Below the pieces are notes generated by a model, which searched no databases, was not told the DNA's origin, and saw nothing but the letters and a program-made list of their open reading frames with translations. The translations under genes were made by a program, and so were the position numbers. Positions 7,001 through 25,318 of a stretch of DNA of 64,000 nucleotides are shown here, piece after piece (positions within the stretch are counted from its first letter, which is position 1; every line of letters starts with the position of its first letter). The DNA is from a virus, in IMG/VR virus record IMGVR_UViG_3300037804_000222, positions 1 to 64,000 of that record, one strand, 5' to 3'.

Positions 7001-7299
7001 CTAATAAAGAACTAGAGCTTCAGATGAGAGGCTTTAATGAAAAAAGAGGATTAGCTAGACAAGGGCACTTAAATGAAGGCTTAACAGGATTGCAAGAGTA
7101 TTTTACAGGCAGACGTAAGGAAAAATTTATGGAAAGTCAAGCGCCATTTGGAAACTATGGTTCAAGCGGTAACTATATAGGTGGAAATTCTGGAGGATAT
7201 ACTCCGTGGCAAGCAGGTAGTAACCAAGCACCAACTCTAAATTTTGGTTCTACGGAAGAGTGGTTCCAAAATAATCCTTTGGGAACTTTTAACCCATAA
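4090..7299 (+). CDS. Virion cargo/ejection protein with N-terminal lysozyme-like (transglycosylase) domain and Gly/Ala-rich membrane segment
   Basis: N-terminal VESSGG...NPHSSATGFYGQ resembles the SLT catalytic E-S and S-A-x-G-x-x-Q motifs. Hydrophobic G/A-rich stretch near aa 590-650; repeated [YF]x(x)GG motifs; no Cys. Confidence 0.65.
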   Translation: MANKNKNNDPLLEKVKKGLKYVESSGGIQMMNPHSSATGFYGQLYNAEELENIPYLQGVDRQSFASDTTLQNRLFEDRYYDRIPGVPGLGKNADDLRVEYKKVLEDKGIPFNYTDDEISALSNLLGRQGAREYFGYVLRDGRSLENVFPKIYGPDAEAPNKTPEKYLKTYREGRDLKYGGQVSKFESGGETGPRKVPYSTPAERTKDKLMQYNPDGNLYHTIHPSGTGPTFQSMYPELAEQFGIQGGGQYLQIPYSNKSPLETKRISSIPNPQDMALRGGRIQPPEPTKPEMAYTKSSKPLTPTSSNPYIIAEPNANNTRFSATPGGNDYTSVSFYSYDPNTDTRTKIYNWEDDLKTAYGQPNVNFTDPNTGRQITGGIDSLMNEYYAGHVSPASRYQQASPNAGQTPIRYNNNKSPHTGGAPIQKYGGQMKKYNNYNQGGEPPKKHKDYLQYIQDYPFTGWADSPHDLGALQNAITRDSTLLQGSWFPDNDLMRNLQINREYRDKVKPYTEDELHDLRYEGNQNLAYGGRAIPQAGWGDLWKKFGKNIGTGLAGVADSLTMGILPMEKIVGKNAMEEYGDSFKMGKRFGTAVGILGGAGAFSAAGAAGAAGGAGAGATGATGAAGTASSAGGSGFLGNMGNILGGGSGGGSTLQNVGGDLFNMFQQESSGMMSDNPTSNPYSYLNYGQGNYAQGGKATSMKQDIGQDANVESGEIMFSAKGGQFQSLNPNAPINEIVPGVSEVSGNVKDDGVPVNLPGDDTTFILSKRLGYADKAKKLIQQYKDLFNQKDTGDVIADEGKKMTLSQIKRKIVGYYREQEKEKQEKGLANKPLQAGLGEWFQKGKDWLGTESGQNATNFLGQNIGTLTNLGRAAFSKDAVPYNAGDYTTQYIPQEFNVDTAAIMNPINQSEAATRYAINRGGGSAADIIQGNLATTAKIAPMKANTLGKLGLMENQFMADQYLKGYEADVANKELELQMRGFNEKRGLARQGHLNEGLTGLQEYFTGRRKEKFMESQAPFGNYGSSGNYIGGNSGGYTPWQAGSNQAPTLNFGSTEEWFQNNPLGTFNP

Positions 7300-7330: not shown

Positions 7331-9832
7331 ATGGCAAGAAATAAAATACAAGGAGCAGGATTATTAGCTGGGCCTATTCAGAGTCAGGCATATGTACCAC
7401 TTCCATATGATAAAGTATTTGAAATGAATCGTTATCGTCAAGCTGAGTATGATAAGAATCAAAAAAATATTTTAGAATTTCAAAAGTCTTTATATAATAC
7501 TGCAGCCAATGTTCCTCCAGGGATGCAGGACGAAGCTTTAGAACAAGTACAACCCTTTTTAAATAGTATTGGGCAGCAAATAGATGCTGCGGGAGGAGAT
7601 TTAGCTAAAGTAAATACTGGAAATATTATGGGGCAGTTCTATAAAAGTCTTGCCAGCGGAGAGTTAGGGCATTTATCTAGAGCAGGAGCTCAATATCAGG
7701 CAGCTCAAAAAGATATAAGTGATAATACTGAACTATTTATGAAGGGTAAAGGAGGGTATGAACCTGGGGTTGGTACTGCGGCTTTATCTCAAGCTAGTAA
7801 AAATTATCAAGAGCAGTATGATGCCTATTTACAAGATCCTTTAAATAACCCGCTTCCTAAATTTACTACTCCTGATATATATCCTTTTGTAGATGTAGCT
7901 AAAAAATCTAGAGAAATAGTTAAGGAAATGGATCCTACAAAAATTGCTGCACTAACAAATCAAATTTTTGCAGGATACAATAATAAAGGAGAGGCTGTAT
8001 ATCAGACATTAAATAATAAAGGAAAAGTTATTCAAGAAAGTACTACATTAAGTCCAGAACAAATTAGAAAGGTATCTAATGTAGCACTGCAGACAGACGA
8101 GCAAGTACAAGCTTATTATAATAATAGATATATGCTATCTGGTACAAAAGCTCCTGAAAACTTTGATCCTGCTACATATGAATATACTGCAGATGCAAAA
8201 ACAAATGAAGGATTACAAAATCAATACTCTGAGCAATATCAAAACTATGTAAATGCTTATGCTCCTTTAGGTACAACAGATCCCCAACAATTAGCTCAAG
8301 CTAATCAAGCTGCTACAGAGGCTACATATAGAGATGTGTGGAAAGACCAAAGAATGAATAATATAGGAGTAGCAAGTGGTAATATATTTAGACAATCTGA
8401 AACTGCATATACAGGAGTGCCTGATAGTGCGGAATTGACTGGAACTCCTCTTAGTGCGGAAGACCAGATTCCATATTTAGTAGGAGATAGTCCTTTCTTA
8501 CCTATTGATAAAAGTACTTCTGAAACAGTAGGAAGTGAAATTTTAAATTTAGATGCTCAAATTTCAGAGCAAGAAGCTTTATTAGATGCTACAGATTCAG
8601 GTACTGTTGAATATAGTACTCATGAATTAGGATTAAATGATCTTAAAACTAGAAGAAATGATTTACTAGTAGCTGCTGGAGAAAAGAGTAAAGCAATGAT
8701 TGAAGATAAAGCTGCTAAATCTATCTGGTGGAGCGATGATACGTTTTCTAAGTCTATGCAAAGCTATTATAAAAATATAAAAAAGGTAAAAAGTAATAAA
8801 GGAGCTCTAAAGGGTGTAAATCAAGAGCAATTTAATAAAAAGGCTCAGATATTATCTGCCATTCCTGGATTAACTTCAATTGATTTATTACCTACTACTG
8901 CAGATCAAATAGAACAACTTAAAAAATTAACTCCTGAAAATTATGGTATTTTAAGCGAAGCTTTTAAAGAAGGAGAATCTATAATGCCTTATTTACAAGC
9001 TGCTCAATGGATACAAAGAAAAGCTAGACGTGCTGATGTTTTAGAAACTTATGAAACATCCTTACGCCCAGTTAAAGGTTACGGAAAAAATTCATACACA
9101 ACAAGATTAACTGATAACTTAACAGAAATGATGCATAGTGGAGATGTAGCTTATACAGATTTTTATGCAAACGAAGATGTGAAGGCCGAACCTTTAAAGG
9201 ATAAGCGACCTATAGAAACGATGCGTCTTACTCCTACATTAACAATGCTTCATGGTGCTCCTGCATATAAATTTGATTTATATGAGTATAATAAAATATC
9301 AGGAACTGCAGATATTGAGGTTGGGGGAATAGAAGAAACTAAATTTGTAAAAGGTACTAACTCAAAAGATGAAATGATTAGATACCAGGATTTAGGAATT
9401 CAATTATTAACATTAGCAAAAGAAAGTGAAGGAACAGCTGCTTCAGGTGCTTATTATAAAGACGGATCGCAAGTATTAGCAAATTCTTTTGTTCTTAGTC
9501 CTGCCCAGTTAACTGGAATTGAAACTGCAGATATGACTACAAATACGGCAGACAGTAAAGGTAATCCTTATATCGAAAGAGATATGTCAGGATTTAATAT
9601 AATTATACGACGTACTGATAAACCTGGAAATTTATCTATATTTGAATTTAGAGTAAAAAGTGGTGAACATGAAGGAAAATTGGTGGGATATGATGATCAA
9701 TATGGTAGACAAGCTATTAGAGGAGCTAGTTTAGAAGATTTAGCATATAAATATTTTATGCAAAGTGGAGAAAAATTAGATACAAGTGGTAACACAGGAG
9801 CAGATATTGTAAATTCTTACTATAATAAATAA
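7331..9832 (+). CDS. Virion cargo/ejection protein
   Basis: 833 aa, N-terminal YVPLPY motif, Cys-free; lies between the cargo and giant virion genes. Confidence 0.55.
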   Translation: MARNKIQGAGLLAGPIQSQAYVPLPYDKVFEMNRYRQAEYDKNQKNILEFQKSLYNTAANVPPGMQDEALEQVQPFLNSIGQQIDAAGGDLAKVNTGNIMGQFYKSLASGELGHLSRAGAQYQAAQKDISDNTELFMKGKGGYEPGVGTAALSQASKNYQEQYDAYLQDPLNNPLPKFTTPDIYPFVDVAKKSREIVKEMDPTKIAALTNQIFAGYNNKGEAVYQTLNNKGKVIQESTTLSPEQIRKVSNVALQTDEQVQAYYNNRYMLSGTKAPENFDPATYEYTADAKTNEGLQNQYSEQYQNYVNAYAPLGTTDPQQLAQANQAATEATYRDVWKDQRMNNIGVASGNIFRQSETAYTGVPDSAELTGTPLSAEDQIPYLVGDSPFLPIDKSTSETVGSEILNLDAQISEQEALLDATDSGTVEYSTHELGLNDLKTRRNDLLVAAGEKSKAMIEDKAAKSIWWSDDTFSKSMQSYYKNIKKVKSNKGALKGVNQEQFNKKAQILSAIPGLTSIDLLPTTADQIEQLKKLTPENYGILSEAFKEGESIMPYLQAAQWIQRKARRADVLETYETSLRPVKGYGKNSYTTRLTDNLTEMMHSGDVAYTDFYANEDVKAEPLKDKRPIETMRLTPTLTMLHGAPAYKFDLYEYNKISGTADIEVGGIEETKFVKGTNSKDEMIRYQDLGIQLLTLAKESEGTAASGAYYKDGSQVLANSFVLSPAQLTGIETADMTTNTADSKGNPYIERDMSGFNIIIRRTDKPGNLSIFEFRVKSGEHEGKLVGYDDQYGRQAIRGASLEDLAYKYFMQSGEKLDTSGNTGADIVNSYYNK

Positions 9833-12800
9833 TGGCAAACGGAAATGATGAAATAGTACCCGCAGGAGTAGCTGGTCTAGAGGTATCTCAAATGCGTTTA
9901 GGAAAAGACCTACTTCCTGAAGCTGTAAAAACTCCCGAATTTACGCTTGCCCCTTCAGGAGAAGCTAGTGTAGTAGATTTAGGATTTACTCCTACAACCT
10001 TAACTCCTGATATACCTGGGTTTACTTCTGAGGAATCTAGACAGCGTGATATATATAGAGATTATGGTGTAGATGTTCGTCCAGGAGTTAACTTAGAAAG
10101 TACTGCAGCACAATTACAAAGCAAAGCAAGTAAATGGGGGAATGGAGTGGTTAAAATGTTAGGTACTGCTACAACTACATTTTTAGAACCTTTTGTAGAT
10201 GTATTTGCAGGAATTCCTTACGCCGTTGCTACAGGAAGAACTGCAGGTGTATTTGATAATCCTATAACACAATCTTTTGATAGTTTTCATGAATACCTTA
10301 GAAAAGAACTCCCCCATTTTTATTCACAAGCAGAAAAAGATTATGGCTTTTGGAAAAGTCTAGGTACTGCAAACTTTTGGTCTGATCAAGGACTACAAGG
10401 AGTTGGATTTTTAGCAGGCGCTATCGGAAGTGGTTATGCGGCAGGGGCTTCTGGAGTTATAGGAAAAAGCTCTAGAGCTATTGGTATGGGCCGAGTAAAA
10501 GCTTGGAGAAATATTGTAAATAAATGGAGAGGTTCTAACCTATCTTACACGGCTTCTGAAATAAGTAAGTTAAGAGATGCTATAGGACATGTAAATACTA
10601 CAGCACAATCTGCAAATTTATTTGGAGCAGGTTTATTTTCAGCAATTGGGGAAGCTGGTATAGAAGCTAGAGAGTCTAAACGTAGAGCCATTGAAATAAT
10701 GGGCCAACTTAGATCTGAAGGAGATCCTAGATACGTAGGGATGACTGATCAGGAGATGGATATATTATCAGATACTGCAGCAAATACAGCTTTTGGATTG
10801 AATACTTTAATTGTAGGTGGAAGTAATATATTACAATTCGGTAAAATGTTTTCTAGAGGATGGTCTCCTACCTCTACTAAATATATGAAAGGACTAATAG
10901 ACCAAAAAGCTCCTTTAAAGTATGCACTTAAAGATTTACCTAAAGGATGGCAAAGAGCTGCTCAAACAGCGGCATGGTTCAAACGCCCGTCTGTAGAAGC
11001 ATTTGAAGAATGGTCTCAAGCTGCTATTAATGTAGGGGTAGAAGATTATTTTACAGATGTGTACTCCTCCGATCCTTGGTCAGAAATGTCTGATTATATT
11101 GAAGGAGGTATGGGAATAATGGGAAGCCTTTTAGAAGGATATGTAGAAGCCCCTCAAACAAAAGAGGGACAGCAAGCTATATTCTTAGGGGCCTTACTAG
11201 GTAAGCTTGGGGAAGTAGGCTCTTCTTTAAGAGAAGAAGGAGTTACATCCAGACAAGAATGGGTTAAAACATATGAAAGAACTAAAGATCTTGTTACTAA
11301 ACTAAATGGATTAGATCCTAATGGAACTCTTGCTAAATTATTAAAAGCACACGCCCAAATACAAAAGTCTCAAGGAAGAATGGACAAGCACCTAGAAGCA
11401 GGCGATGTATTTTCTTATAAAAATGAAGAGTCAAGAGCATTATTTTCCCTTATAGATACATATATAGAAGCGGGTCGTGTAGAAGATCTTAAAGCTTTTG
11501 TAGGTTCTTTAGAGACCCTTACAAATGAGGAGTTTAAAGAGGCTATGGGAATACCTGAAGACATAAAGATTAAAGATGTTTCTGAACAGGTAAGACAAAT
11601 AAAAGATAAAATAGAATTCATAGAAAAAGAAAAACCTAAAGTAGATAAATTTATTTTAGGAGCTAAGAATTTAGATGATTTCCAAAAGGCAATAGTAGGA
11701 GAAGCTATTAGATACTATAGTTATATGGCAGATACCCTGGACACAAGAAGAGCGAGTCTTAGCCAGGAAATATCTGAATTAAGTAATGGTAATATTAATT
11801 TCGATTCATTATTAGGATTAGATATAAGTAGTGTAGAACTTAAATCAGCTCTTGCTGACATGTTAACTAATACTAATAAAGATAATAAAGTAACAGAGAT
11901 TAATAAAAATGAGTTTGCTCCTTTATTGGAGGATATAGGTATGGTGGAAGCTTTACGCCAAGAGTATATAAAACTTGTAAATGAAGTAGTTAATAAAGAA
12001 TTAAAACCTTCTGATTTAAAAGGAGTTGATAAACAAGAGGCTAAAACTAAAACTGAATCGGAGACTGAGGCTGAAGAAGTAAGAGATGAAATATTACAAG
12101 AAGAAGATGATGCTTTAGCAGAATCTAAAGAGCAAGATATAGCAGAAGAAACTAAATTGCGACGAGAGCAGCAAGGAACTAAACGAGAAAGAAAACTTGC
12201 AGCTCAAGCTAAAGAAGAAGAGTTACCTTTAGTAGAGCAATTAGAAAAAGCACTTACTATAACTCCTGAAGAAAAAGAGCAGGCCTTAAAAGATATAGCA
12301 AAAAGTACGAAATCTAAATTTAAAGCGCTTGCTAAAGAATTAGGTATTCCTATGTCTGAAGATGTTGAAAATCTTTTAAGTGCTCAAGACGCAGAAATTG
12401 AAAGATTAATTTCTTTAGAAGAGCGCGGCGTAGATATAGAAGCTACAGAAGAAACTCCTATAGGTGTACTATTATCTCATCCTAATGCGTCCGTACAAGT
12501 ACGGTTTATGGGCCAAGAAGGATTATTATTTAGAGACACTGAGACTGGAGAAATTATTTTCGAAACTCAAGCTGGAGAAGAATATGTACTGGGACAAAAT
12601 ATAAATGAGAATACATTATCTGAGTTTGGTGTAGAGGCTTTAGAAAGTCAGCATGAGGCTGCAGGAATTCGTATTATAGCCGATGGTAGAACGTTTGAAA
12701 TAAATGGAGAGTACTATAACAATCTATTTATAAATCCTCTATCTGCTATTGATCCGTTTATCTTTAGACAGGACCAACCTGGATATGTTCCTAAACGAGT

Positions 12801-15417
12801 AACGTTGTTTGATTCTAACGGTAAAAAAGTTACATTTGTTAATCCTTTTATTGTACAAGAAATATCTAGACTAATAACTCTAATAGAAGTTATTAAGAAA
12901 GAAGCTCAATTAGAATTACTAGATACAAAAGGAGATCAAGTATTTGAATTCGAAGGTAAGAAGTATTATATAGAAGATACTGTAGAGCAACGATATTCTA
13001 CAGCATTTGAAAGAAAGCAAGGATTCCCTGAAGTTATTGAAACTCCAGTATCTATAGTTTATAATGAAAAATTAAATAAACTAAGAAGTCCTGCTAAAAT
13101 AGCTCAAGTATTAAAAGCAAGAGATGCACATATTGAGAATTATGTGCAGAACAAAATTAATAAATATAAAGAAGAGTATTATGAAGACGTTTTCGGAAAA
13201 AGATCTGATGCCAATACTGCCGCTAGAACTGAAGAGGAAGTTAAACAAGACGCCTCGGAATCAACAAGCGAGCCTCTTAGCGCAGAGAGTATTGGAGCTG
13301 AACAAACTGCTCCAGACAAAACAGACGCCCAAGCCAACGCCAAACCAAAAGTAGAGGAAATAGAACGTGGGGCTGAAACTACTGTTGAGTCAGAGGAACG
13401 AGAGGATGAAAGTCCTTTCCATGACAATACTGTAAGTAATGAAGTACCAACTGATGAGAGTCCTCAAGTTACTGCTGAAGAAACAGAAGTAGCTGACTTA
13501 GGGGAGACTAGAGAGGCTGTAGTACATTCTAGCGAGCTTAATATAGATGTTCCTAATAATAATGATGTAGATATATCTAATGAAGCAGCAAACGCTAAAG
13601 ATTCTTCTATTACAGAAGAAATACAACCACTTAAAACAATACTTTCACTTGCTTGGAAATCTTTAAATCATCCTTGGGAGTCTGGAGAAATAAGCTCCTT
13701 CAACGAAAGATTAGTTAGTTTATTAGAAGGAAATGATACCACTGAATTCGGTAAGCTTAAAAAAGACGGGACCGTTAAAGGATTTGATGTAGTATTTAAG
13801 ATAGATCTAAATGATCCTAACCTAACAAAGGTTGCGGGAATGGAAGCTATTTTAAATAAAGTAAAAAATAAGAAATCTTTAACGCAAGCAGAATTAGATA
13901 AGCTCCCTATAAAAGCTCTTATACAAGTGCCTAATGCAAAATCTAGTACAGGTATAAGTCAATTTCAAACTTATGTGCACCTACCTTCTTATATAGAGCA
14001 ACATATTAAAGAGAAAGAGCATGAAGAAGCTAGACGATTATTAGCTGACTTAAGAAAAACAGTGTATACAAATTATGTAAAAGGTATAGAGTCCAGAAGT
14101 GTTATTACAGATATGACAGGAGGACATTTAAATAACGTAAACAAAACGGCTAAAAATAATATCAATACAGTATTAAATTTACGTAGACCAGGTAATCCAA
14201 TTGTTCCGCAATTTATATTTGCTCGTAATGGGAACTATATAAATGAACACGGAGAAGTAGATACAGATTTACAATTTCTATCTGTTAAACCTAAATTAGA
14301 TGAGGAAGGTAATGCTATTTCTAATAACGACGGAGCTGTATATGTAAAAGTACCTATGAATAATGGTGAGATATTTCCATTAAGAGTATTTACAAGCGAC
14401 TTAAATAAAGATTTAGCAGCATTAGTATACCAACTATATGCACAGGTGTTAAAAGGGGATAGTTTGAATTCTGAAATATCTAGATATGAATTACTTCAAA
14501 ATTCTGAACAAGAAATCTATAAAGATCTTGCAAAAATATTAGATGAAATAAAAGAAGCAGAGGCTCCTACATATAATCAAATATTAGATATACTTGTATA
14601 TAAAGGTAAGAAAACAATAAATAGTAAAGCTCCTACACTTCATTATTCTAACGGTACTTTATATTTAGGAGATAAAACATATACTGCTAAAGAATGGGGA
14701 ACTCAAAAAGATGAGATTATAGAATACTTAATGGGTAACATGCGTTCTCATGTTAATGTAGGGTATATGAATAGTAAAACTCAAAATGCATATAATATGT
14801 TTTTAACTAAACATAAATTAGTATATACTAATGCTTATGCTAATAAAGATACTGGTTCTATATTCGTACAACCTACTGTTAGATTTTCTCCTATAAATGC
14901 TCCAAGAGGAACTGCAGCACCTTTGCCAGGGCCTTCTCCAGTGGTAAAACCCGAAGCACCCGTAGCTGAAAAAGAATCTAAGAAGCCAATTCAGCCTAAA
15001 ACTGAAGGAGTGGAAACTATGGATCTTTCTGATTTACCTGCAGATATGCAAGCAGATGCTATGGCGGCATTAGAAGCAATGCAAGCAGAGATGGCTGGTC
15101 TTACTGGTGCAACAGAAACAGATCTACAAAAAGATCAAGAGCTAATTGATGCGGGGCTAGGAAATATAGTCCCTACTTATAGTAAACTAGCCTTAAAGCT
15201 TAAAGAGGGTACTGTAATTACAGGAAAGGAATTGAAAGAATTACAAGCCGAATCTGGTTTAGAACAAAAACTTCCTGTAAATTTGCAAAATGAAGAAGGA
15301 AATATGTCTTCAGAGGAAACGATAGAATGGGGAGACCCTAGTATGTTTGGAGATCCTATGAGTACATTTAAAAGTGAGGATATAGATAATAGTATCAATA
15401 ATTTAGAATGCGACTAG
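9832..15417 (+). CDS. Giant virion (ejected) protein with N-terminal glycine-rich membrane segments
   Basis: 1861 aa; hydrophobic GxxxG segments in the first 470 aa; acidic linkers; TAATG-coupled to the upstream gene; precedes the RNAP. Confidence 0.65.
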   Translation: MANGNDEIVPAGVAGLEVSQMRLGKDLLPEAVKTPEFTLAPSGEASVVDLGFTPTTLTPDIPGFTSEESRQRDIYRDYGVDVRPGVNLESTAAQLQSKASKWGNGVVKMLGTATTTFLEPFVDVFAGIPYAVATGRTAGVFDNPITQSFDSFHEYLRKELPHFYSQAEKDYGFWKSLGTANFWSDQGLQGVGFLAGAIGSGYAAGASGVIGKSSRAIGMGRVKAWRNIVNKWRGSNLSYTASEISKLRDAIGHVNTTAQSANLFGAGLFSAIGEAGIEARESKRRAIEIMGQLRSEGDPRYVGMTDQEMDILSDTAANTAFGLNTLIVGGSNILQFGKMFSRGWSPTSTKYMKGLIDQKAPLKYALKDLPKGWQRAAQTAAWFKRPSVEAFEEWSQAAINVGVEDYFTDVYSSDPWSEMSDYIEGGMGIMGSLLEGYVEAPQTKEGQQAIFLGALLGKLGEVGSSLREEGVTSRQEWVKTYERTKDLVTKLNGLDPNGTLAKLLKAHAQIQKSQGRMDKHLEAGDVFSYKNEESRALFSLIDTYIEAGRVEDLKAFVGSLETLTNEEFKEAMGIPEDIKIKDVSEQVRQIKDKIEFIEKEKPKVDKFILGAKNLDDFQKAIVGEAIRYYSYMADTLDTRRASLSQEISELSNGNINFDSLLGLDISSVELKSALADMLTNTNKDNKVTEINKNEFAPLLEDIGMVEALRQEYIKLVNEVVNKELKPSDLKGVDKQEAKTKTESETEAEEVRDEILQEEDDALAESKEQDIAEETKLRREQQGTKRERKLAAQAKEEELPLVEQLEKALTITPEEKEQALKDIAKSTKSKFKALAKELGIPMSEDVENLLSAQDAEIERLISLEERGVDIEATEETPIGVLLSHPNASVQVRFMGQEGLLFRDTETGEIIFETQAGEEYVLGQNINENTLSEFGVEALESQHEAAGIRIIADGRTFEINGEYYNNLFINPLSAIDPFIFRQDQPGYVPKRVTLFDSNGKKVTFVNPFIVQEISRLITLIEVIKKEAQLELLDTKGDQVFEFEGKKYYIEDTVEQRYSTAFERKQGFPEVIETPVSIVYNEKLNKLRSPAKIAQVLKARDAHIENYVQNKINKYKEEYYEDVFGKRSDANTAARTEEEVKQDASESTSEPLSAESIGAEQTAPDKTDAQANAKPKVEEIERGAETTVESEEREDESPFHDNTVSNEVPTDESPQVTAEETEVADLGETREAVVHSSELNIDVPNNNDVDISNEAANAKDSSITEEIQPLKTILSLAWKSLNHPWESGEISSFNERLVSLLEGNDTTEFGKLKKDGTVKGFDVVFKIDLNDPNLTKVAGMEAILNKVKNKKSLTQAELDKLPIKALIQVPNAKSSTGISQFQTYVHLPSYIEQHIKEKEHEEARRLLADLRKTVYTNYVKGIESRSVITDMTGGHLNNVNKTAKNNINTVLNLRRPGNPIVPQFIFARNGNYINEHGEVDTDLQFLSVKPKLDEEGNAISNNDGAVYVKVPMNNGEIFPLRVFTSDLNKDLAALVYQLYAQVLKGDSLNSEISRYELLQNSEQEIYKDLAKILDEIKEAEAPTYNQILDILVYKGKKTINSKAPTLHYSNGTLYLGDKTYTAKEWGTQKDEIIEYLMGNMRSHVNVGYMNSKTQNAYNMFLTKHKLVYTNAYANKDTGSIFVQPTVRFSPINAPRGTAAPLPGPSPVVKPEAPVAEKESKKPIQPKTEGVETMDLSDLPADMQADAMAALEAMQAEMAGLTGATETDLQKDQELIDAGLGNIVPTYSKLALKLKEGTVITGKELKELQAESGLEQKLPVNLQNEEGNMSSEETIEWGDPSMFGDPMSTFKSEDIDNSINNLECD

Positions 15418-15418
15418 A

Positions 15419-18400
15419 ATGGCTTGTAATATAAACAGAAATGATAAAGGTATTGTTACTGGTGTAACTACAGACTCTGGAGAAGAGTCTGTATTGTTTA
15501 CACAGTTATCTAATTTAGTAGACAATAAACCTGAAACTGCAGTAACATTATATGCAGCTACAGATACTGAAGATTTTAAAACCTTCTTTCAAGATTCTAG
15601 ATTTGTTAATAGTTTAGGCGAACCCGCTTTAGTTGGAGAGTTCTATATGAATAACGAAGGGAGAACTTGGTGGGCTAAAGCTAGGAATTCACAAGAAGCT
15701 TTAGATAAATTTGCTTTTGGGTTAGATCGAATTTCTGGGTTAACAATTGGACAGGTAGACGATATTGTAAACTTCTTTCACGGCATGCTTATTAATAATA
15801 TCAATGATATAGAAAATATATCAGATATAGATGTTAGAAAATTACGTCCTATATTATTACAATTAGAAAATATAGTACGTAAAGATCCTCACAGAAATAA
15901 TATTGTGAAAATTCTTAAAGAGGATTTACTTAATTATGATCTTTTGAATGATAAAGGTTACCCAGGTATAAGCCAAAGTTCTAAACTCGTGGCTGCTATT
16001 AAGAATAGATTAGCTGCTGAAGGTATTATAGAGCAGCAAGAAGAAATGAAAGAAGAGGAGAAAACTTCTGGATTAAATTTAAAATCTAAAGAACTCTTTT
16101 CTCCTAAAGATAATGCACAAGCTAGTACAAAACTTTTATTCCGAGGTCTTCATGATACTTTCTATACAGGAGAGGTGATAGATGGAGTTAAAAAGAGATC
16201 TATCAGAAAAGATAAGACATTGGGAATGCCTAAATTTGTAAACTTTTCAGAAGTTTATAATTTACTTGCCCAAGAACTTACAGGTATTGTATCTGATAAG
16301 AACACTGAAGATGTTTACGAGGCATATTTAAGTAAAATTAGATCTTTAACAAAATATTATCCTTTTCTTGTAGAGCTTGAGTATAAGCTAGAAAATGCAA
16401 AAGGGAATTCTCCTACTTCCGAACAAAGAAGAACTAGATTTACAACTGCTTTTGCTTTAGAGCAACAGCCTTATTCTCAAACTCTTTATTCTGGAGAGGC
16501 TGGGAGTAGAACCTTCAAAGTAGGTAAAGCAGATGTGCAGGCTAAAGAAGAGGTGGTTAGAGAGAAATGGCAAGAAGGCTTTAAGAATATTTTAACTAAA
16601 TATAGTAGAACAGGTAAACACTTGTTTAAAGATGAGGTTGCTGTAGCAGCCGCCAGATCTTTTCAAAAGCTTTTAAAAGAATATAGACAAGCAGCTAAAG
16701 CAGATAAAACTGCATACCCAGCTCAATACATACAACAGCTATCTCAAATCTTAGACTCTGTTGGTATAGATATGTCTACAGAAGCTTTAAAATATCATAT
16801 AGATGAAGTCGCTAAAGGTAAAACAATGGCGAGTAAAGTTCTAGATACTTTTAGTAATTTAGAATTTGTATTTGGAAAGCAGGGATTATTAAAACTAGCA
16901 GATCGATATGGTAAGTATAAAGATGCTAAACGAGCGCAGCGTCCTATAGAAGATAAAAACGGTAAAGTTATTAATCTATATAAAGACGAGAAAGGTGTAT
17001 TAGCATTAGCTAAGTCTCAAGCAAAGTTTGAACTAGGATTTCATGAAAATAGTGTTTTAGGGCCCAAAGGAGATATTTATTGGCCGTTTTCAGATATAAG
17101 TTATTTATCTCAAATCATTGCACAGTTTAAGCAAGGAGATTTAAGTTATTTAGAAGCTTTAAAAGGACAAGTATATAATAAGAATTCTAAATGGTTAAAT
17201 TATTTATTGGCCGACGAAAAGAATAGAGAGCTCTTTAATAAAGAAGTATTTATGCAAATGAAAGAAGAGGATACCTATGAAGGTATTAAGTATTTCAATC
17301 TTTCAGAGCCTGATCAATTAGCTGATAGAATAAATAGAGTATTGAAAGGACATCAATTTTTAATGACTCCTGGTAACGCCCGTACTCTTTATAATATTGT
17401 AGGTACTCCGCAATACTCTTCTGGAGTTAATATAAGTTTAAAAAACGAAGAATTCACATTTGAGTATACATCAGATGAAGTGCTCAATACTTTTAAAAAC
17501 TATATCATAGATGAGCTGTCTGCAATGGAGGTTGCCTATAATCAGGTTTTTGACAACGAGAATAAGCTAAGTAAAAATAAGCAAATATTATTTTATCACT
17601 ATGATAAAAATGGTAATGAAAGAGTGGATGGGATTCCTGCAGGGAATGCATTTAAACACTATTTATTTCCTGAGCTTAATTTTGGCTCTCCTATTGCTGC
17701 TGCTTTAAAGTTATATGATCAAAACGGTAAGCCCCAACCAATTAATTCTGAAACGTTAAATAGTCCTATTATAGAAAATTTAATTAAAGCGCAATTTGAA
17801 CTTCGAGCAAAAGAACAACTAATTGAAGCTATAGATTATAATTTGGTAGGAGTAGTTACTTCAAAAAAAGACAAAGAATCTGTATTTACAAATAAACAAA
17901 TAGATATTAATGTCTTAGAAAGTGGGGAATTATATAAAAATGTTCCTGATAACTTAAAGGTGGGACGAGCAATTTCTGATTATGTATATAACAGTTTAAT
18001 AGCTAATATAGAATCTACTAAATTATTTGTAGGTAATATTGCCTTTTATAAAAGTGTAGAAGACTTTCCTAAAAGATCTAATTTATATAGTACAGGAGTA
18101 ACGCCTTTACGTATCTATAAGGATAAACAAACTAATTTATATGAAGTAAATCCTTTTTACTTACAATCTACAGTATTTGATGTGCTCAAACCTTCTGACT
18201 ATATAAGCGATGTAGAATCTTACGATGAAATCGATTTAGCAGATGCTACTACCTGGATAACCCCTACATTACGTAAACAAAGAATGAAAGGATTAGGCCA
18301 ATGGAGTGCTAAAACAGAGGCCTCATTTAACAGACTGATGGCAGGAGAATTAAACACTGAAGACGTTTTAATGCTAATGCCTCAAAAGAGTACAGCCAGA

Positions 18401-21400
18401 GGAACAGAAATAAAGAATAGTCTAAATGTGCCTTATAGAGAAAAAACTGCAGAAGTAACGCTCTGGCCAGGACTGGTAAATACTATTCAGTTACAAGATC
18501 TATATGATAAAATGACTGAAGCTGAAACTACTTGGGCGGAAGAACATAATGGACAAGAAATAGGAATGTCTGTATCTGTAGAATCTGCCGTTAAAGTTGG
18601 AGCAGGAGAAAGAACTAAAATAGACGATGATGCAGGAGCAGTACTAAATCCTGAAGAGTTTGAATTAGAATATGTAGAAAAATCCCACCAATTATATGGT
18701 AAACAACAAGATGTTAATGCCAAAGGTGTAAAAGACGGGACATTTGGTTCTCAGACTAAAATGTTAATGCTTGGAGATATTAGCGATACTGCTAAAATAG
18801 GAAGTAAATCTGGGCCTCAGTGGCTACAAGAAGTGCAAGACTTAGAAAGTGCTATATCTGAACTAGGTAAAAAAGAATTCTTTGATAGATTTGGTATCTC
18901 AGAAGATCTAGAAATAAACGAAGATAAATTCAGAAAGGAATTAATAGGAATTTTTGAAAAGGATAAGTTTAAAGATGAGGCAGTACTTCAAGGATTACAA
19001 GCAGGACTAGAATTTGATGCGATATTCCAATCTAGAAGAAAAATAATGAATAAGCTTGCAAATACTTTAAGCAAGTCAACAGTTACTTATTCTGCAAACG
19101 GTACACAGGCAGTACAAATATCTTCATTTGGATTTTTACAGAATCCACAATCTATAGCAGAGTTAGATGGAGAAGCTAAATCTAAAATTAGATGGATAAA
19201 AGATGACAACACTCCTTTAGCTCCGCCAAGAATTGTTAATGGTAAATTAGAATTAGCTCAGATATTATTACCTTATAGAGTTGTAGAAAATATTCCTGGG
19301 TGGGAAACTATGACTAATGCTGAATTAAAAGCAGCTATAGGTAAAGATGTATTATCTGTTATAGGGTATCGTATTCCTACACAGTCTCTTGCCTCTATCG
19401 ATGCTTTAGATATAGTGGGTATTTTACCTGCCGAACTTGGAGATACAGCTGTAGTATATGAAGACATTACTAGAAAAACAGGTAGTGACTTTGATATTGA
19501 TAAATTATTCATGCTTATACCACATGTGTTCTATAGTAAGAAAACTGGTAAATTAGAATTAGTAGATCCGTCTGGAAGTTCTAGAAAGTCTTTAGAAAAT
19601 AAAAGAATTCTTTTATATAAAGAGTTATTCCAATCAGTTAGTGAATACCCTAGAATTATTAAATCTATAGATACTAAGGATTTAAAAGAAGATGCTACTT
19701 ATATAGAACAATTAGCAGGAGAACAAGATAGGTTTGACGGATTAAAACTATTTAGTGGGCAATTCCAACAGGAATTAAAAAGAAGGTTTGCATTAGGAGC
19801 TATAGGCGTAGGATCTATTGCGAATTCTATTATAGATAATGTTTCCTCTCAAATAGGAAAATTAAATGTTTCTAATATTGGTATTGGGGCCACTGAAACT
19901 TTAGCCGATGGTTCCATAGTTACAAGTTTACACGAAACAAGCAGAACAGACGGTCTTTTAGTATCTGAAATCCAATCAGGGTACATGAACGCATTTGTGG
20001 ATATTGAAAAAGATCCTTATATAGCGATGTTAAATGTGAATGCTGAAACATTAAATATAACTACACTTCTAGTTAGAGCTCAAGTACCCACTAAATGGAT
20101 AAATAGATTTTTAAAGCAACCTGTTATTGTAGATTATGTACGACAAATATCTATAGACAAAAGTCCTTTATTAGATCGTAAAGTAAATCGAGGGAAGTTA
20201 ATAGAATCTTTAATATCTGAGTACTCTACAGAAAATTCTTCTGAACTAGAAGCGGGACTGTCTTTAGAAAATCCTTTAGATAATGTTAAAAATATTCTTA
20301 CAGTATCTAATTTAGAACAAGGTATATCTAAAGAAAATTTAGACTATCAAGCCGCTGTAATAGCTTACTTTGATTCTATACGTAAGACAGCTGATAAGAT
20401 ATTTGACCAAAACCTGGCCTCTAAGGTTCACACAAAAGGTGTTGGACAAGGTATGATAGAGGCGCGAATGGCCTTACAAACTAAAGAAGAAATAGAAACT
20501 AGCGATGACTATATAGAAATAGGTAACTTTAATGAGAAGTTCGCTGAGGGTACAATACTAGGAAAATACTTTGAAAATGGTCCTAAACTTTTTATAGAGC
20601 TATTTGCAGATAAATTTTTATCAGGAAGACTAGAAAGCACTGAACTAGCTATGCTTGACGCCACTAATAATAAAAACTCTAAAGATTATAGATTACGTAG
20701 AGCCATGGAGGATAGAATGTATTCTTATATGTACAGTAATCACTTTGTAGGTACGCCTGAATTAGGATCTCCAGAACAATTATTATTTGATTCTGCAACT
20801 AACAAATCTTTAGTACAAGAATTAAGAAAAATGGCTATTAAATATCCTGATAATATTTTAATTGGAAAGGATAGAGGTATTTTGAAAACTACTTTAAATA
20901 GAAATGAAGAGGGAGTTAATATGGTGCCTAGTGAAATATCGATGAGTAACGCTAAGTTCTTACCAGCTGATATTAAGAAGCTTGCTAGACAAGCATGGGA
21001 GGACGGATTAAACTCTTCTATAGAAGAAGAGCAAATATTTTACAATAAATTAGTTAAATATGCGTATCTTACGTCAGGATTTAGAAATGGATTAAAAACA
21101 TTTTATGATATAGTCCCAATTTTATGGAACGTAGAAAATAAATTTAATAACTCTGTCCAGGCTTTAGGATTAGAACAAGGAAGCATGCTTCAGGCAGGAA
21201 TAGATCAGGTTATACGACATGAATATAAAAATCCTAAGTATGCCCCTAGAATACGAAAAAGTAAAGCTGTCGTACCTATAGATAAAGCAACTGGATTATT
21301 CGGTGGTATTAAGTTATTAGGAAATGAAGCTAAAAGACACCTGCTAACTAAATTTATTACATGGTCCTATAAAGGAGAGGCAAAGCTATTTAAAAATGGT

Positions 21401-21655
21401 GGATATGAAATTGTAGAAAAAGGAGGAGAACAATATTTAAATCCTTTGTTTTATCCTGTATCTCCTTTAGGTTACCAAAGCGAAGGAGGTTTTAGAGTAG
21501 TTGAGTATAGATTTGATAAAGCTGAACCTGAGAGCATGTTTGAACAAAATAAAGTAGAAGTAAGTAAAGCAGTACAGGCTAGAATAAATAAGGCCTATGA
21601 AATGGAGTCTGCTAGAGAGCGTGTACAAGAATTTACTAAACCTGAATGTATATAA
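15419..21655 (+). CDS. Virion-packaged DNA-dependent RNA polymerase (phi14:2 gp66-like, two-barrel)
   Basis: 2078 aa with GYRIPTQ followed by the catalytic TGSDFDIDKL motif, plus ESAVKVG and NAFVDIEKDP. These match the crAss-like virion RNAP. Confidence 0.93.
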   Translation: MACNINRNDKGIVTGVTTDSGEESVLFTQLSNLVDNKPETAVTLYAATDTEDFKTFFQDSRFVNSLGEPALVGEFYMNNEGRTWWAKARNSQEALDKFAFGLDRISGLTIGQVDDIVNFFHGMLINNINDIENISDIDVRKLRPILLQLENIVRKDPHRNNIVKILKEDLLNYDLLNDKGYPGISQSSKLVAAIKNRLAAEGIIEQQEEMKEEEKTSGLNLKSKELFSPKDNAQASTKLLFRGLHDTFYTGEVIDGVKKRSIRKDKTLGMPKFVNFSEVYNLLAQELTGIVSDKNTEDVYEAYLSKIRSLTKYYPFLVELEYKLENAKGNSPTSEQRRTRFTTAFALEQQPYSQTLYSGEAGSRTFKVGKADVQAKEEVVREKWQEGFKNILTKYSRTGKHLFKDEVAVAAARSFQKLLKEYRQAAKADKTAYPAQYIQQLSQILDSVGIDMSTEALKYHIDEVAKGKTMASKVLDTFSNLEFVFGKQGLLKLADRYGKYKDAKRAQRPIEDKNGKVINLYKDEKGVLALAKSQAKFELGFHENSVLGPKGDIYWPFSDISYLSQIIAQFKQGDLSYLEALKGQVYNKNSKWLNYLLADEKNRELFNKEVFMQMKEEDTYEGIKYFNLSEPDQLADRINRVLKGHQFLMTPGNARTLYNIVGTPQYSSGVNISLKNEEFTFEYTSDEVLNTFKNYIIDELSAMEVAYNQVFDNENKLSKNKQILFYHYDKNGNERVDGIPAGNAFKHYLFPELNFGSPIAAALKLYDQNGKPQPINSETLNSPIIENLIKAQFELRAKEQLIEAIDYNLVGVVTSKKDKESVFTNKQIDINVLESGELYKNVPDNLKVGRAISDYVYNSLIANIESTKLFVGNIAFYKSVEDFPKRSNLYSTGVTPLRIYKDKQTNLYEVNPFYLQSTVFDVLKPSDYISDVESYDEIDLADATTWITPTLRKQRMKGLGQWSAKTEASFNRLMAGELNTEDVLMLMPQKSTARGTEIKNSLNVPYREKTAEVTLWPGLVNTIQLQDLYDKMTEAETTWAEEHNGQEIGMSVSVESAVKVGAGERTKIDDDAGAVLNPEEFELEYVEKSHQLYGKQQDVNAKGVKDGTFGSQTKMLMLGDISDTAKIGSKSGPQWLQEVQDLESAISELGKKEFFDRFGISEDLEINEDKFRKELIGIFEKDKFKDEAVLQGLQAGLEFDAIFQSRRKIMNKLANTLSKSTVTYSANGTQAVQISSFGFLQNPQSIAELDGEAKSKIRWIKDDNTPLAPPRIVNGKLELAQILLPYRVVENIPGWETMTNAELKAAIGKDVLSVIGYRIPTQSLASIDALDIVGILPAELGDTAVVYEDITRKTGSDFDIDKLFMLIPHVFYSKKTGKLELVDPSGSSRKSLENKRILLYKELFQSVSEYPRIIKSIDTKDLKEDATYIEQLAGEQDRFDGLKLFSGQFQQELKRRFALGAIGVGSIANSIIDNVSSQIGKLNVSNIGIGATETLADGSIVTSLHETSRTDGLLVSEIQSGYMNAFVDIEKDPYIAMLNVNAETLNITTLLVRAQVPTKWINRFLKQPVIVDYVRQISIDKSPLLDRKVNRGKLIESLISEYSTENSSELEAGLSLENPLDNVKNILTVSNLEQGISKENLDYQAAVIAYFDSIRKTADKIFDQNLASKVHTKGVGQGMIEARMALQTKEEIETSDDYIEIGNFNEKFAEGTILGKYFENGPKLFIELFADKFLSGRLESTELAMLDATNNKNSKDYRLRRAMEDRMYSYMYSNHFVGTPELGSPEQLLFDSATNKSLVQELRKMAIKYPDNILIGKDRGILKTTLNRNEEGVNMVPSEISMSNAKFLPADIKKLARQAWEDGLNSSIEEEQIFYNKLVKYAYLTSGFRNGLKTFYDIVPILWNVENKFNNSVQALGLEQGSMLQAGIDQVIRHEYKNPKYAPRIRKSKAVVPIDKATGLFGGIKLLGNEAKRHLLTKFITWSYKGEAKLFKNGGYEIVEKGGEQYLNPLFYPVSPLGYQSEGGFRVVEYRFDKAEPESMFEQNKVEVSKAVQARINKAYEMESARERVQEFTKPECI

Positions 21656-21656
21656 T

Positions 21657-24600
21657 ATGTCGTGCGAATTAAAAAATAGTTTAATTAAAGAATTCACTGA
21701 AAAGTTTGATGCTTCTGAAGGGCAAAGAATTGGGGAAAGTCTTTATAATCATATATTCACTCCTTCTTTTAAAAGATGGTTTGGAGATTTTGAAGCAGGT
21801 AAAGCTACTAAAGGTAGAGCTGATATGAAAAACGGTTTGCCTACTAAAGAAGTTATATTAGAGTATTTAGATAAACAAGGATTAAAAGCTGAAAAAGATA
21901 TACCTTCTAGTTATATCAATTTAATATCTAAATATACACCAGTCAATCCTACAAGTGTAAGAGAAGATTTAATACAACAAACTGAAGCCTTATTAAAAAA
22001 GGTGGCTAAAGAGGTGGGAGATTATGCCCAGACTAAAACTCAAAAAGGCTCTCCAATGCAGCGTCAAAGAAAGCAGAAAGCAGCTTTTAGAACTAAAATA
22101 GAATCTCTGCTTACTAAACTAAGAACTTATAAAACTGAAGCAGGCCTTATTGAATATGTGTCTCAAGTTAAGCAGGACATTGCAGGTATTAAAAAAGCAT
22201 TAAAACTAGCTTCTGGTAAAGATGTTAACACTCATTATGAGTATTTAAAAAGACTTAGGTATTTTGCAGCTATTGAAGATGTAGTCTATGTTATTGATAA
22301 AAATCCTAAACTTAAAAAGGAATTTGCTAAAAATAAAATTGACTATTCGCATATAGCTGCTGATATACAAAATCTTAAAAAAGAGTTATCTGAAAAGTTT
22401 ATAGATGTATTAGGAGAAAAATGGGGAGAAATCCCAGGAAAAATGACTAGGCTTGCTAGAGAAAAATATAGAAGAGGATACTCCTATAATGAAGCTTGGA
22501 GAAAAAGCAATCCTGGTAAATCAAAAGCAGATTTTAAAAAGATGCAGGAAGCTCATATAGATAAAATGATAGAGCAAAATGAAGTTGATTTACAGCAAGC
22601 TGAAAAAGATCATATTAAAAAAGCTATGCTATCTGTATCTGATGATATTAGTTGGATGGATGCCTACTTTGGTAACCCTAGAGATATTACAGATGATCTT
22701 ATACAAATAGCAGTGGAGCTATTAGATAAGGCAGATTATCTTGTAATGCGTGAGACTATAAATAAAACAAAAGAGGCTCATGATTTATTTGAAAGATTTA
22801 AAGTAGGAAGAAATACAAAGAATATGGTTAAACTGTATGAGGATCTTCTTGCTTTTGATGAAAAAGGTAAACCCACAAATTATTTAGTTGGCCCTATTAA
22901 AGGAGAGTACTTTAAAAAACTATCAGATCTGTATCAAGAAAAACGCCTTGCAATTGAAGAGCACGGAGAAACCAGCGAGCAAGCTATAAACGCTAAAAGA
23001 AAAGAAAAAGTATGGATCAATGCTAATTCTATAAATGGGAAGCGTGGAAAACCTAGAGCATCTTGGCAGGACCCTAAATATAAGTACTTTGAAGATAAGA
23101 GTAATAAAGGGCAAGCCACTTATGATATGTATTGGTTTTTACGAGAGCTGGCAGAGAAGAGAGATAAAAATTATCTAGGCCATGGAGCGGGATTAAGATT
23201 ACCCGCTATAGAGAAAAGTATATTAGAACGTACATTTGAAAATAATATAGTAGATACTGCATCTAGAACTTTTGGAGATACTTTTAGAGTGAGAGCCACT
23301 GATGTAGAATTACATAATGAAAATCCTGACGAAGTAGAAGCTGAAGGATGGCGAGCTATGAAAGAAAAGATTAAACGTACTATTTATGTTAATCTTGATG
23401 AACAGCAAAAAATAAGTAGAAGTATTCCTACATATTTTAGAGATCGAAGTAAAGTAAAACCAGGGGACCAGTCTTATGATTTGGTTAGTATGTATTTACT
23501 TGATTACTGGGGATCTATAAATTATAAAGAAAAATACAGTATACTTCCTGAATTAGAAATATTCAAGGAATCTATAGCGACAAGAAAAACAGTTCAAAAG
23601 ACTTTTACTAAACAAACTCAAGTTGCTAAAAAATTAGGGATGGAAGAAAATGTTCCTGCTGTAATTAAAGGGGAGGAGTCTAACGCTTATAAAGCAATAC
23701 AAACTATACTTGAAGATAGAGTTTATGGTATTAAATCTATAGGTAATGCTACAACTAATAAGATAGCCCAATCTTTGATGTCCTTTACAGGGGATTTATT
23801 TTTAATAGGAAATTACTTTTCTGCGGGGGCTTCTTTGTTTCAAGGTAAAACTATGAACTTCATAAAAGCAGTTGGGGGAATAGATTTTAATTTAAAAGAT
23901 GTTACAAGAGGGGAGCTTAAATATGATGCAGATGTAATTAATATGATAGGAGATATAGGGGCACTTGTTCCAACTTCTAGAACAAATTTACTTGGAGAAA
24001 TATTTGAGTCTACACAAGATTGGAGTGCAGTAGCTAAAAAGTTTGCAGGAACCACAAAAGCTAGTCAATTAGCTAATAAAAATACTTTACACTTTTTAAC
24101 AGGATTAGCTGAAAACTATATCCAGAATACTTTAATGTACTCATTTTTAAATGGGATTAAAGTAAAAAATGAAAAAGGAGAGTATATAAATACTGCAGGA
24201 GAAGTAGTTAAAGATAAAAAAGACGCGATGTCTTTAGATGAAGCGTATGAAAAAGATAAATCAGGTAAAAGACTAGTGATGAGAAAAGATGCAGACAGTA
24301 TAGAATTAAATACTGGGCAAACTTATTCTTTAAAAGCAAAAGATTTAGAAAGTACGGAGTTTACGGTGAAGAGATATTTGAATCACCTTAATAGAAGACT
24401 TAACGGTAACTATGCTTTGAATAACCAAGCAATGGCTCAAAGAGCTGCTATGGGTAAATTAGCATTTATGTTAAGAAAGTGGCTAGAGCCTGGAATAAGA
24501 AGAAGGTATAGAGGTATAGGTACTGCAATGCCTGGTATAAATATGATTCCAAAAGAGCATTTAACAGAGGAAGATATATATTATAATAGAGAAATTCAAG

Positions 24601-25154
24601 ATCTTGATGAGGGTACATATACCACTGTATTAAGATTTTTAGGAGGACTAAAGCAAGATACTAGAAAATTTAGTATGGAACTTACCACTGAAAGATGGCA
24701 TGATCTCTCCTTAAGAGAGCAAGCTAATATTAAAGAAATGGTAACAGAATTCACTGCTTTAATTCTTTCTTCTATGGGAGCTGCTCTTTTATACGGTGCC
24801 GCTCAAGACGAACCAGATGAAAAACAAAAATGGGCTTTATATATGGGGGCCTTTTATACAAGAAGATTATACTCTGAATTATTTTTCTATACAAACCCTA
24901 GAGAGGCCTTAAGAATTTTAAAAAGTCCTGCAGCTTCTTTAAGTTTAATTCAAAATGGTATGGAAATATTTGATCAATTTACAACTGATGCATGGTCTGT
25001 AGCTACTGGAGGACAAATGGAAAGATACCAATCAGGTAAAAGAAAAGGAGAACTTAAGTTTAAAAAAGAAATTAACGATATAATTCCAATTTCGTATCAG
25101 CTCAAAAGAGATGTAGAAGATACAATAGGATGGTTATATAAACCTGTAGATTAA
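21657..25154 (+). CDS. Large virion (ejected) protein; probable start ATG 21657 (MSCELK)
   Basis: ATG lies 1 nt after the RNAP stop, the same spacing as the 15417/15419 junction. FKRWFGD motif near the N-terminus; C-terminal helical region with a hydrophobic segment. Confidence 0.65.
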   Translation: MSCELKNSLIKEFTEKFDASEGQRIGESLYNHIFTPSFKRWFGDFEAGKATKGRADMKNGLPTKEVILEYLDKQGLKAEKDIPSSYINLISKYTPVNPTSVREDLIQQTEALLKKVAKEVGDYAQTKTQKGSPMQRQRKQKAAFRTKIESLLTKLRTYKTEAGLIEYVSQVKQDIAGIKKALKLASGKDVNTHYEYLKRLRYFAAIEDVVYVIDKNPKLKKEFAKNKIDYSHIAADIQNLKKELSEKFIDVLGEKWGEIPGKMTRLAREKYRRGYSYNEAWRKSNPGKSKADFKKMQEAHIDKMIEQNEVDLQQAEKDHIKKAMLSVSDDISWMDAYFGNPRDITDDLIQIAVELLDKADYLVMRETINKTKEAHDLFERFKVGRNTKNMVKLYEDLLAFDEKGKPTNYLVGPIKGEYFKKLSDLYQEKRLAIEEHGETSEQAINAKRKEKVWINANSINGKRGKPRASWQDPKYKYFEDKSNKGQATYDMYWFLRELAEKRDKNYLGHGAGLRLPAIEKSILERTFENNIVDTASRTFGDTFRVRATDVELHNENPDEVEAEGWRAMKEKIKRTIYVNLDEQQKISRSIPTYFRDRSKVKPGDQSYDLVSMYLLDYWGSINYKEKYSILPELEIFKESIATRKTVQKTFTKQTQVAKKLGMEENVPAVIKGEESNAYKAIQTILEDRVYGIKSIGNATTNKIAQSLMSFTGDLFLIGNYFSAGASLFQGKTMNFIKAVGGIDFNLKDVTRGELKYDADVINMIGDIGALVPTSRTNLLGEIFESTQDWSAVAKKFAGTTKASQLANKNTLHFLTGLAENYIQNTLMYSFLNGIKVKNEKGEYINTAGEVVKDKKDAMSLDEAYEKDKSGKRLVMRKDADSIELNTGQTYSLKAKDLESTEFTVKRYLNHLNRRLNGNYALNNQAMAQRAAMGKLAFMLRKWLEPGIRRRYRGIGTAMPGINMIPKEHLTEEDIYYNREIQDLDEGTYTTVLRFLGGLKQDTRKFSMELTTERWHDLSLREQANIKEMVTEFTALILSSMGAALLYGAAQDEPDEKQKWALYMGAFYTRRLYSELFFYTNPREALRILKSPAASLSLIQNGMEIFDQFTTDAWSVATGGQMERYQSGKRKGELKFKKEINDIIPISYQLKRDVEDTIGWLYKPVD

Positions 25155-25318
25155 TGAAATTCGGATTTGGTATAAACTGGTCAAAAGGATTATTGTTTGG
25201 AATTAGACACTTCCAACCAGAAGAATATGCACCGTACTATGAAGTACAATTTTTTTTAGGATTAATACAAATTTTTATAATTATAGACAATGGCAACACT
25301 GACGATAACATTAACTGA
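25154..25318 (+). CDS. Small hypothetical protein (54 aa, MKFGFGINWSKG...)
   Basis: TAATG-coupled to the upstream gene; fills the gap before 25290; below the ORF-track cutoff. Confidence 0.55.
   Translation: MKFGFGINWSKGLLFGIRHFQPEEYAPYYEVQFFLGLIQIFIIIDNGNTDDNIN

Follow-up and report, generated by a model that had tools for sequence, protein, structure and literature searches.

Why should three giant proteins, encoded side by side in a phage genome, carry cysteine only at the ends that face one another? The question is raised by positions 1 to 64,000 of the IMG/VR virus record IMGVR_UViG_3300037804_000222 (hereafter the window, to which all positions without a prefix refer); the record, 90.8 kb long, belongs to a divergent crAss-like phage. 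Three consecutive genes encode proteins A, B and C, the middle one being the virion RNA polymerase. In translation they amount to 5,104 amino acids (aa) with four Cys in all, located at the second-last residue of A, at residue 3 and the second-last residue of B, and at residue 3 of C. A first reading of this DNA (the original prediction) had described four Cys in about 5,100 aa, at the junction-facing ends only; this is exact, and the outer termini are Cys-free. Here we argue from sequence comparison that the tail of A is probably bonded through these residues to the head of B, and the tail of B to the head of C, within the virion. The bonds would most likely be disulfides, giving one covalent chain of about 5,100 aa. 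The genes, residues and domains concerned are as follows (alignments are numbered A1 to A5).

9832–15417 (+): protein A, 1861 aa, candidate first link; orthologue of phi14:2 gp67 (BLASTP E 3e-11; phrog_32390, E 7e-23); single Cys at 1860 (...NNLECD)
15409–15411 (+): TGC codon of Cys1860 of A, the penultimate residue, facing B
15419–21655 (+): protein B, virion RNA polymerase, 2078 aa, candidate middle link; matches PDB 6vr4 (phi14:2 gp66) at E 1.5e-84; exactly two Cys, 3 and 2077 (MAC...KPECI)
15425–15427 (+): TGT codon of Cys3 of B, facing A; sole invariant column of the B N-terminal alignment A4
15476–15643 (+): N-terminal module of B, residues 20–75, homologous to the module of C
19487–19501 (+): catalytic DFDID motif of the polymerase, residues 1357–1361; invariant against the relative L001 and phi14:2 gp66 in alignment A1
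21647–21649 (+): TGT codon of Cys2077 of B, the penultimate residue, facing C; sole invariant column of alignment A2
21657–25154 (+): protein C, 1165 aa, candidate last link; orthologue of phi14:2 gp65 (BLASTP E 4e-82); single Cys at 3 (MSC)
21663–21665 (+): TGC codon of Cys3 of C, facing B; invariant column of alignments A3 and A5
21666–21860 (+): N-terminal module of C, residues 4–68, homologous to B 20–75 by hhalign profile comparison

Results

Four cysteines in three giant proteins

The other open reading frames (ORFs) of the window contain about 0.9% Cys, so that about 46 would be expected in 5,104 aa. By simple arithmetic, the chance that four randomly placed Cys all lie within three residues of the four junction-facing ends is about 3e-12. 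Both junctions have the predicted stop-N-ATG form (TAG A ATG; TAA T ATG). The start of C could be placed at 21657 rather than at 21597, in line with the original prediction: the two closest relatives, L001 and L002, which are 67% identical, have no upstream ATG, begin MSC and otherwise show the same Cys pattern as the window.

Homology to gp66, together with DFDID as a motif of the DFDxD type, identifies B as a two-barrel RNA polymerase, about 25% identical to those of catalogued Crassvirales. The flanking giants A and C are orthologous to gp67 and gp65, and the gene order is that of phi14:2. Pfam searches gave no match for A, B or C, and the PHROGs matched A only, through phrog_32390, whose function is unknown. 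Because of their orthology to phi14:2 and crAss001 proteins, A, B and C are most likely packed in the virion and injected; proteins of this block have been found by proteomics in the virions of phi14:2 (annotated records) and of crAss001 (Bayfield 2023, PMC10172136).

The same junction-only pattern is present in the orthologous sets of both cultured phages, to which the window is only about 25% identical. In phi14:2 (gp67-gp66-gp65; gp66 is PDB 6VR4), gp67 ends ..NTIC, gp66 reads MAC..QECK and gp65 begins MSC, with no further Cys. In crAss001 (gp47-gp50-gp49), gp47 ends ..RCNS, gp50 begins MSKRC and has a Cys at 2404 of its 2412 residues, and gp49 begins MAKKC. Since crAss001 gp47 is encoded on the opposite strand, away from gp50, the pattern is a property of the proteins and not of a nucleotide signal at the junction. 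Translational coupling was ruled out as its cause on the same ground and because intergenic gaps range from -13 to +60 nucleotides (nt).

Where genes are fused in catalogued phages, the Cys at the lost junction disappears and the other is retained. Carjivirus communis gp45 ends ..SFSCM and faces gp44, a B-C fusion that begins MSC and is without a C-end Cys. In the Suoliviridae and in Flavobacterium phage Fpv1, A and B are fused without an N-end Cys, and a C-end Cys is kept facing a C protein that starts MxC; the sole Cys of the 4,401-aa Fpv1 fusion is at position 4400, and the protein that follows begins MAC.

Two side observations belong to the catalogued genomes. Carjivirus communis gp47 (L007:3585-6158, 857 aa), an upstream cargo-like protein, has a single penultimate Cys (..KQSCR), and the next protein is Cys-free, leaving no obvious partner. 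TAG recoding is known in gut crassviruses such as cr4_1 and cr60_1; in these two (L008 and L009) the chain genes hold 18–55 in-frame TAG codons each, and the Cys rule holds with TAG read as Q.

Cysteines at split and fused junctions

Junctions were compared in their DNA context across 90 loci (80 from IMG/VR, nine annotated phage loci and the window; 75 non-redundant). Both Cys were present at 39 of 40 split A/B junctions, after correction of locus L033, and at 54 of 56 split B/C junctions, the two exceptions being one frameshifted gene and one doubtful start. At fused A-B junctions neither Cys was found (18/18), and the upstream neighbours at these 18 loci also lack a C-terminal Cys without exception, as does the 833-aa protein encoded upstream of A in the window (7331–9832). 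These counts bear out two expectations of the original prediction, namely that the terminal Cys are conserved in pairs and that gene fusions remove the pair. At the outer ends, Cys occurs at the N-end of A in 0 of 37 cases and at the C-end of C in 3 of 55. Control ORFs from the same loci contain 0.79% Cys, with a Cys among the first 8 residues in 6% and among the last 12 in 16%. Most proteins have no Cys beyond those at the junctions: A has exactly one in 44/47, standalone B exactly two in 38/48 and C exactly one in 60/72. In alignments whose columns average 11–17% identity, no column other than that of the Cys is invariant.

One could imagine that there is no link at all, Cys having been purged from ejected proteins and merely tolerated, or otherwise used, at flexible ends. 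Cys depletion of ejected proteins is indeed known from N4-like phages, where it is rationalized by passage through the oxidising periplasm (PMC11445570), and T7 gp15 and gp16 are Cys-free. We find this scarcely credible here, as tolerance cannot give 95–100% conservation at such column identities with Cys as the sole invariant column, and it leaves both the absence from outer ends and the loss on fusion unexplained. Nor do the counts favor pairing of each terminal Cys with its own copy in a homodimer, or with some other virion protein, instead of the neighbour's end. Such pairing would equally account for fused forms without either Cys, since the ends themselves are gone, and virion copy numbers leave room for it. 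However, both sides carry Cys at 93 of 96 split junctions and the outer ends almost never do, which independent pairing would not need; with the bond of cyanopodophage A4 (described below) being heterotypic and tail-to-head (PMC12002296), we regard homotypic pairing as very improbable. End-to-end links between neighbours are instead suggested because the Cys pairs are kept where the genes are separate and absent where they are fused. The two Cys of a pair come and go jointly and follow the break points between polypeptides, which is most simply explained if each pair makes a covalent bond in place of the peptide bond of the fused forms.

A second sample, with independent gene calls, came from a HMMER search in which the polymerase core found 1,936 relatives; these were clustered at 50% identity, and the 150 best cluster representatives were analysed. 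The N-end Cys was found at residue 3–7, and the C-end Cys 1–9 residues from the end. Among standalone B proteins (n=82), 80 have the N-end and 77 the C-end Cys, with 30 internal Cys in 191,319 aa (about 0.016%). The A-B fusions (n=39) have an N-end Cys once and a C-end Cys in all 39, with 23 internal Cys in 158,276 aa. Eight representatives appear to be triple fusions. Among the loci, length thresholds for a fused C misassign several long polymerases behind which a separate C is encoded (L011, L037, L076, L085). Five of the eight have no terminal Cys, four of these (P0006, P0015, P0034, P0050) being entirely Cys-free over about 4,700 aa; the remaining three (P0038, P0094, P0101) have a C-end Cys.

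In a FastTree phylogeny of the RNA polymerase core, whose branch support should be read with caution, the state of fusion to A changes at least 14 times. Across 11 independent contrasts the N-end Cys changed in the opposite way to fusion in 7–8 and in the same way in none (p ~0.008). For fusion to C, seven contrasts gave four changes in the opposite way and none in the same way (p 0.125).

Two loci act as natural experiments. In L064 the polymerase is encoded on two genes, and the extra junction has its own Cys pair (..ILECL facing MAYC..), which would give a four-protein chain. In L090 (IMGVR_UViG_3300042311_000757), a LAGLIDADG homing-endonuclease ORF (PF03161, E 6.7e-25; 11872-12516) lies inside the catalytic motif of the polymerase, between ..KTGSD and FDVDK.., and this break has no Cys pair; the interruption is probably a group I intron in active-site codons.

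Locus L033 was considered as a relocated split site and rejected: its polymerase has an extra N-proximal domain that recurs in certain C proteins, and the contig end truncates its A. A domain without a Pfam match, about 700 aa long, occurs at L033:2193-4415, as well as in the C proteins of L089, L051 and L069 and in the L022 fusion; its place differs from lineage to lineage, being N-proximal in the polymerase, N-proximal in C or in the region of A/B fusion. At L047:15999-16715, directly after the polymerase where C is expected, lies a Cys-rich ORF of 238 aa with a weak T5orf172 match. In L064, L074, L085 and L087, a near-constant 354–359 nt separates a gene with a C-end Cys from the MxC gene that follows it. 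In L090, a ferritin-like ORF (L090:15581-16075; PF00210, E 1.7e-19; four Cys) is located between the polymerase and the downstream chain protein.

The shared N-terminal module

The original prediction held that B and C share an N-terminal module. BLASTP of the window proteins does not detect it (E 1.3–2), and the claim stands by profile comparison. With profiles limited to the N-terminal 110 residues (42 B proteins, 59 C proteins), hhalign aligned the two families over 61 columns (probability 97.4%, E 1.2e-11; reversed controls, E 0.7–0.9), matching B 20–75 to C 4–68 in the window. An earlier comparison of the long, gappy alignments A4 and A3 had given a probability of 36% and is superseded by these profiles. 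On this profile evidence, the N-termini of B and C are homologous over a module of about 60 aa. A hidden Markov model (HMM) of the module did not detect it in the A-B fusions (about 40 representatives, about 20 loci); this HMM finds just 51 of 92 standalone cases, so that loss of the module cannot be read from it.

An ungapped comparison of heads showed those of the same genome to be no more alike than cross-genome pairs (p 0.59). An AlphaFold2 model of C (predicted local distance difference test 79, predicted template modelling score 0.78) is mostly helical, and Cys3 opens helix 3–16. Against solved structures, the whole 1,165-residue model gave no Foldseek match at E <=0.001 (best E 0.025), a wide VIA-align comparison returned generic helical bundles only (Z <=10), and the A5 profile matched no PDB sequence; these whole-model comparisons thus yielded no fold match to cyanophage gp26 (PDB 9k3a). 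A complex prediction of the C-terminal 300 aa of B with the N-terminal 450 aa of C (alignments A2 and A3; one pair) scored 0.10, below the mark of 0.32, and speaks neither for nor against an interaction.

Comparison with known ejection systems

A close parallel is found in cyanopodophage A4 (Anabaena phage A-4L). There, cryo-electron microscopy revealed that the C-terminal helix of gp27 is inserted in a cleft of gp26, and that Cys1715 of this helix is disulfide-bonded to Cys5 of gp26 (PMC12002296). In the A-4L genome, Cys1715 is the sole Cys of gp27 (1,717 aa) and Cys5 the sole Cys of gp26 (1,114 aa). As in the window, single Cys thus lie a few residues from the facing ends (three from the C-end of gp27), with none elsewhere. 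Unlike the window, phage A4 has one link rather than two, and no RNA polymerase is involved; the bond is neither offered as a general rule nor tied to gene fusion (PMC12002296). The likeness is one of mechanism, argued by analogy, and not demonstrated ancestry.

Because of the phage A4 structure, a disulfide is the most likely chemistry for the junctions described here; disulfides do occur in crAss001 virions as well, in the tail (PMC10172136). Alternatively, the two thiols might bind a shared ion in a zinc-type clasp with a nearby His, Asp or Glu and form no disulfide. Many tails of the Suoliviridae type do carry HC (..MIHCIKS, ..KKHCKKS, ..MKHCKGE) where those of the window carry EC, and such a clasp would form in the reducing gut. 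Yet there is but a single Cys at each end, its flanking residues differ greatly between phages, and the sole solved case with this signature is a disulfide (PMC12002296), which makes a metal clasp improbable.

The same structure bears on the purpose of the bond. The disulfide of phage A4 sits in an ordered, pentameric pre-ejectosome ring (PMC12002296), and the disulfides of the window could likewise clasp a static packaged assembly, fixing its stoichiometry and position in the capsid, rather than form an ordered and reducible thread. The sequences are silent on the order of ejection. On the other hand, a linear chain agrees with the strict collinearity with gene order and with the way a peptide bond can take the place of the link in fused forms, and crAss001 shows no ordered density for gp47, gp50 or gp49 (PMC10172136). 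A static clasp is therefore somewhat unlikely, though we take it more seriously than any of the other alternatives, and the linear disulfide chain remains the preferred reading.

Other ejection systems share the depletion and lack the pairing. The ejection proteins of the Schitoviridae (N4 gp50, DEV gp71-73) and T7 gp15/gp16 are giant and strongly Cys-depleted, and one is a virion RNA polymerase, as in the window; they have zero Cys and nothing to pair, whereas depletion in the window stops exactly at the junction-facing ends. A wholly Cys-free state of the N4 gp50 type, from which the window departs by its four terminal Cys, is reached among the crass relatives only by the four triple fusions named above, which resemble the single-chain solution of N4. 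T7 gp14 (gene 14, L094) has a single Cys at residue 2 (MCW..), with no facing C-terminal Cys in the neighbouring genes.

No paper combining Crassvirales and cysteines was found in the searchable literature. Neither a terminal Cys nor an inter-protein link is mentioned in the reports on phi14:2 (bioRxiv 10.1101/2020.03.07.982082) or crAss001 (PMC10172136), the former of which does mention fusions into a polyprotein.

Genes flanking the block

Two cargo-like proteins are encoded upstream of A, and both are without Cys, as originally described.

4090–7299 (+): Cys-free protein of 1069 aa, upstream of the candidate chain at the position of a crassvirus cargo protein (synteny with crAss001 gp45/gp46 upstream of gp47); no family in Pfam and PHROG searches
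7331–9832 (+): Cys-free protein of 833 aa, the second of the cargo-like pair; stop codon overlapping the A start codon (TAATG)

Just past C, an ORF of 151 aa (25290–25745, +) has a single Cys near its C-end (..VACQD) and no family match; it is kept in L001 and L002, with the Cys at a different distance from the end. The phage's own genome also encodes a thioredoxin-family protein outside the window (C1:82921-83148, +; PF00085, 34.5 bits, above the curated cut-off), and no glutaredoxin was found in it.

Discussion

The terminal-Cys feature is real, strongly conserved and, in the literature searched, undescribed for Crassvirales, and the mechanism it suggests has one experimental precedent elsewhere. 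We propose that A is joined to B, and B to C, through a bond from the C-terminal Cys of the one protein to the N-terminal Cys of the other, and that the N-terminal module found in both B and C receives the preceding tail and brings the thiols together. The bond would form after the particle leaves the reducing cell, and host thiol reductases could free the three proteins after ejection. The original prediction likewise had a docking module capture the preceding tail, and a chain drawn in order through the phage tail and released in the reducing cytoplasm; it is supported in part, these three elements being its conjectural side. The lack of any other Cys may prevent wrong pairings and trapping in the oxidising periplasm. 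The link could serve to thread the proteins through the tail in order, to fix their packaging at 1:1:1, or to do both. The three-protein chain is likely the equivalent of the single polyprotein of related phages.

Several points weigh against this proposal. The bond has not been observed in any crassvirus. The low-redox surroundings of gut crassviruses make spontaneous oxidation less certain. The virion disulfides reported for crAss001 by Bayfield et al. involve tail and portal-vertex proteins only, and gp47, gp49 and gp50 are not mentioned among them (PMC10172136). No homology to A-4L gp26-gp29 was found below E 0.1 by phmmer and the N-module HMM, which leaves the precedent as an analogy. Profiles of A tails and B tails show no detectable similarity beyond the Cys, and tails anchored on the Cys are weakly more alike within a genome than across genomes (p 0.017). 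Finally, 5 of the 82 standalone polymerases lack the C-end Cys, and in L057 the only Cys of A lies at -32; some of these exceptions may be gene-call or assembly errors.

A bolder and more tentative reading, which we hold to be rather less likely than not, sees the Cys pair as part of a modular, reusable coupling device, in which a Cys-ended C-terminal tail plugs into the conserved, Cys-bearing N-terminal module of about 60 aa. Giant proteins could then be split or fused freely and still act as one redox-cleavable polyprotein. The chain would form in the particle, pass through the tail as one strand some 5,000 aa long and be cut by host thiol reductases, switching on the virion RNA polymerase. 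The device would have arisen independently in A4-like cyanophages.

Among human gut phages the Crassvirales rank first in abundance, and they are also common in the sea. Structural papers on them have left open how so much protein, several hundred kilodaltons with the infection-starting polymerase included, is delivered through a narrow tail. For annotation, the Cys signature helps to fix start codons (21657 in the window), tells real splits from frameshifts and introns, and flags chains of ejected proteins in unknown phages. If true, a conserved covalent tether would explain how the products of separate genes can be packaged in a set ratio and sequence, why Cys is avoided elsewhere in these proteins, and why genes of this block are so frequently fused and split.

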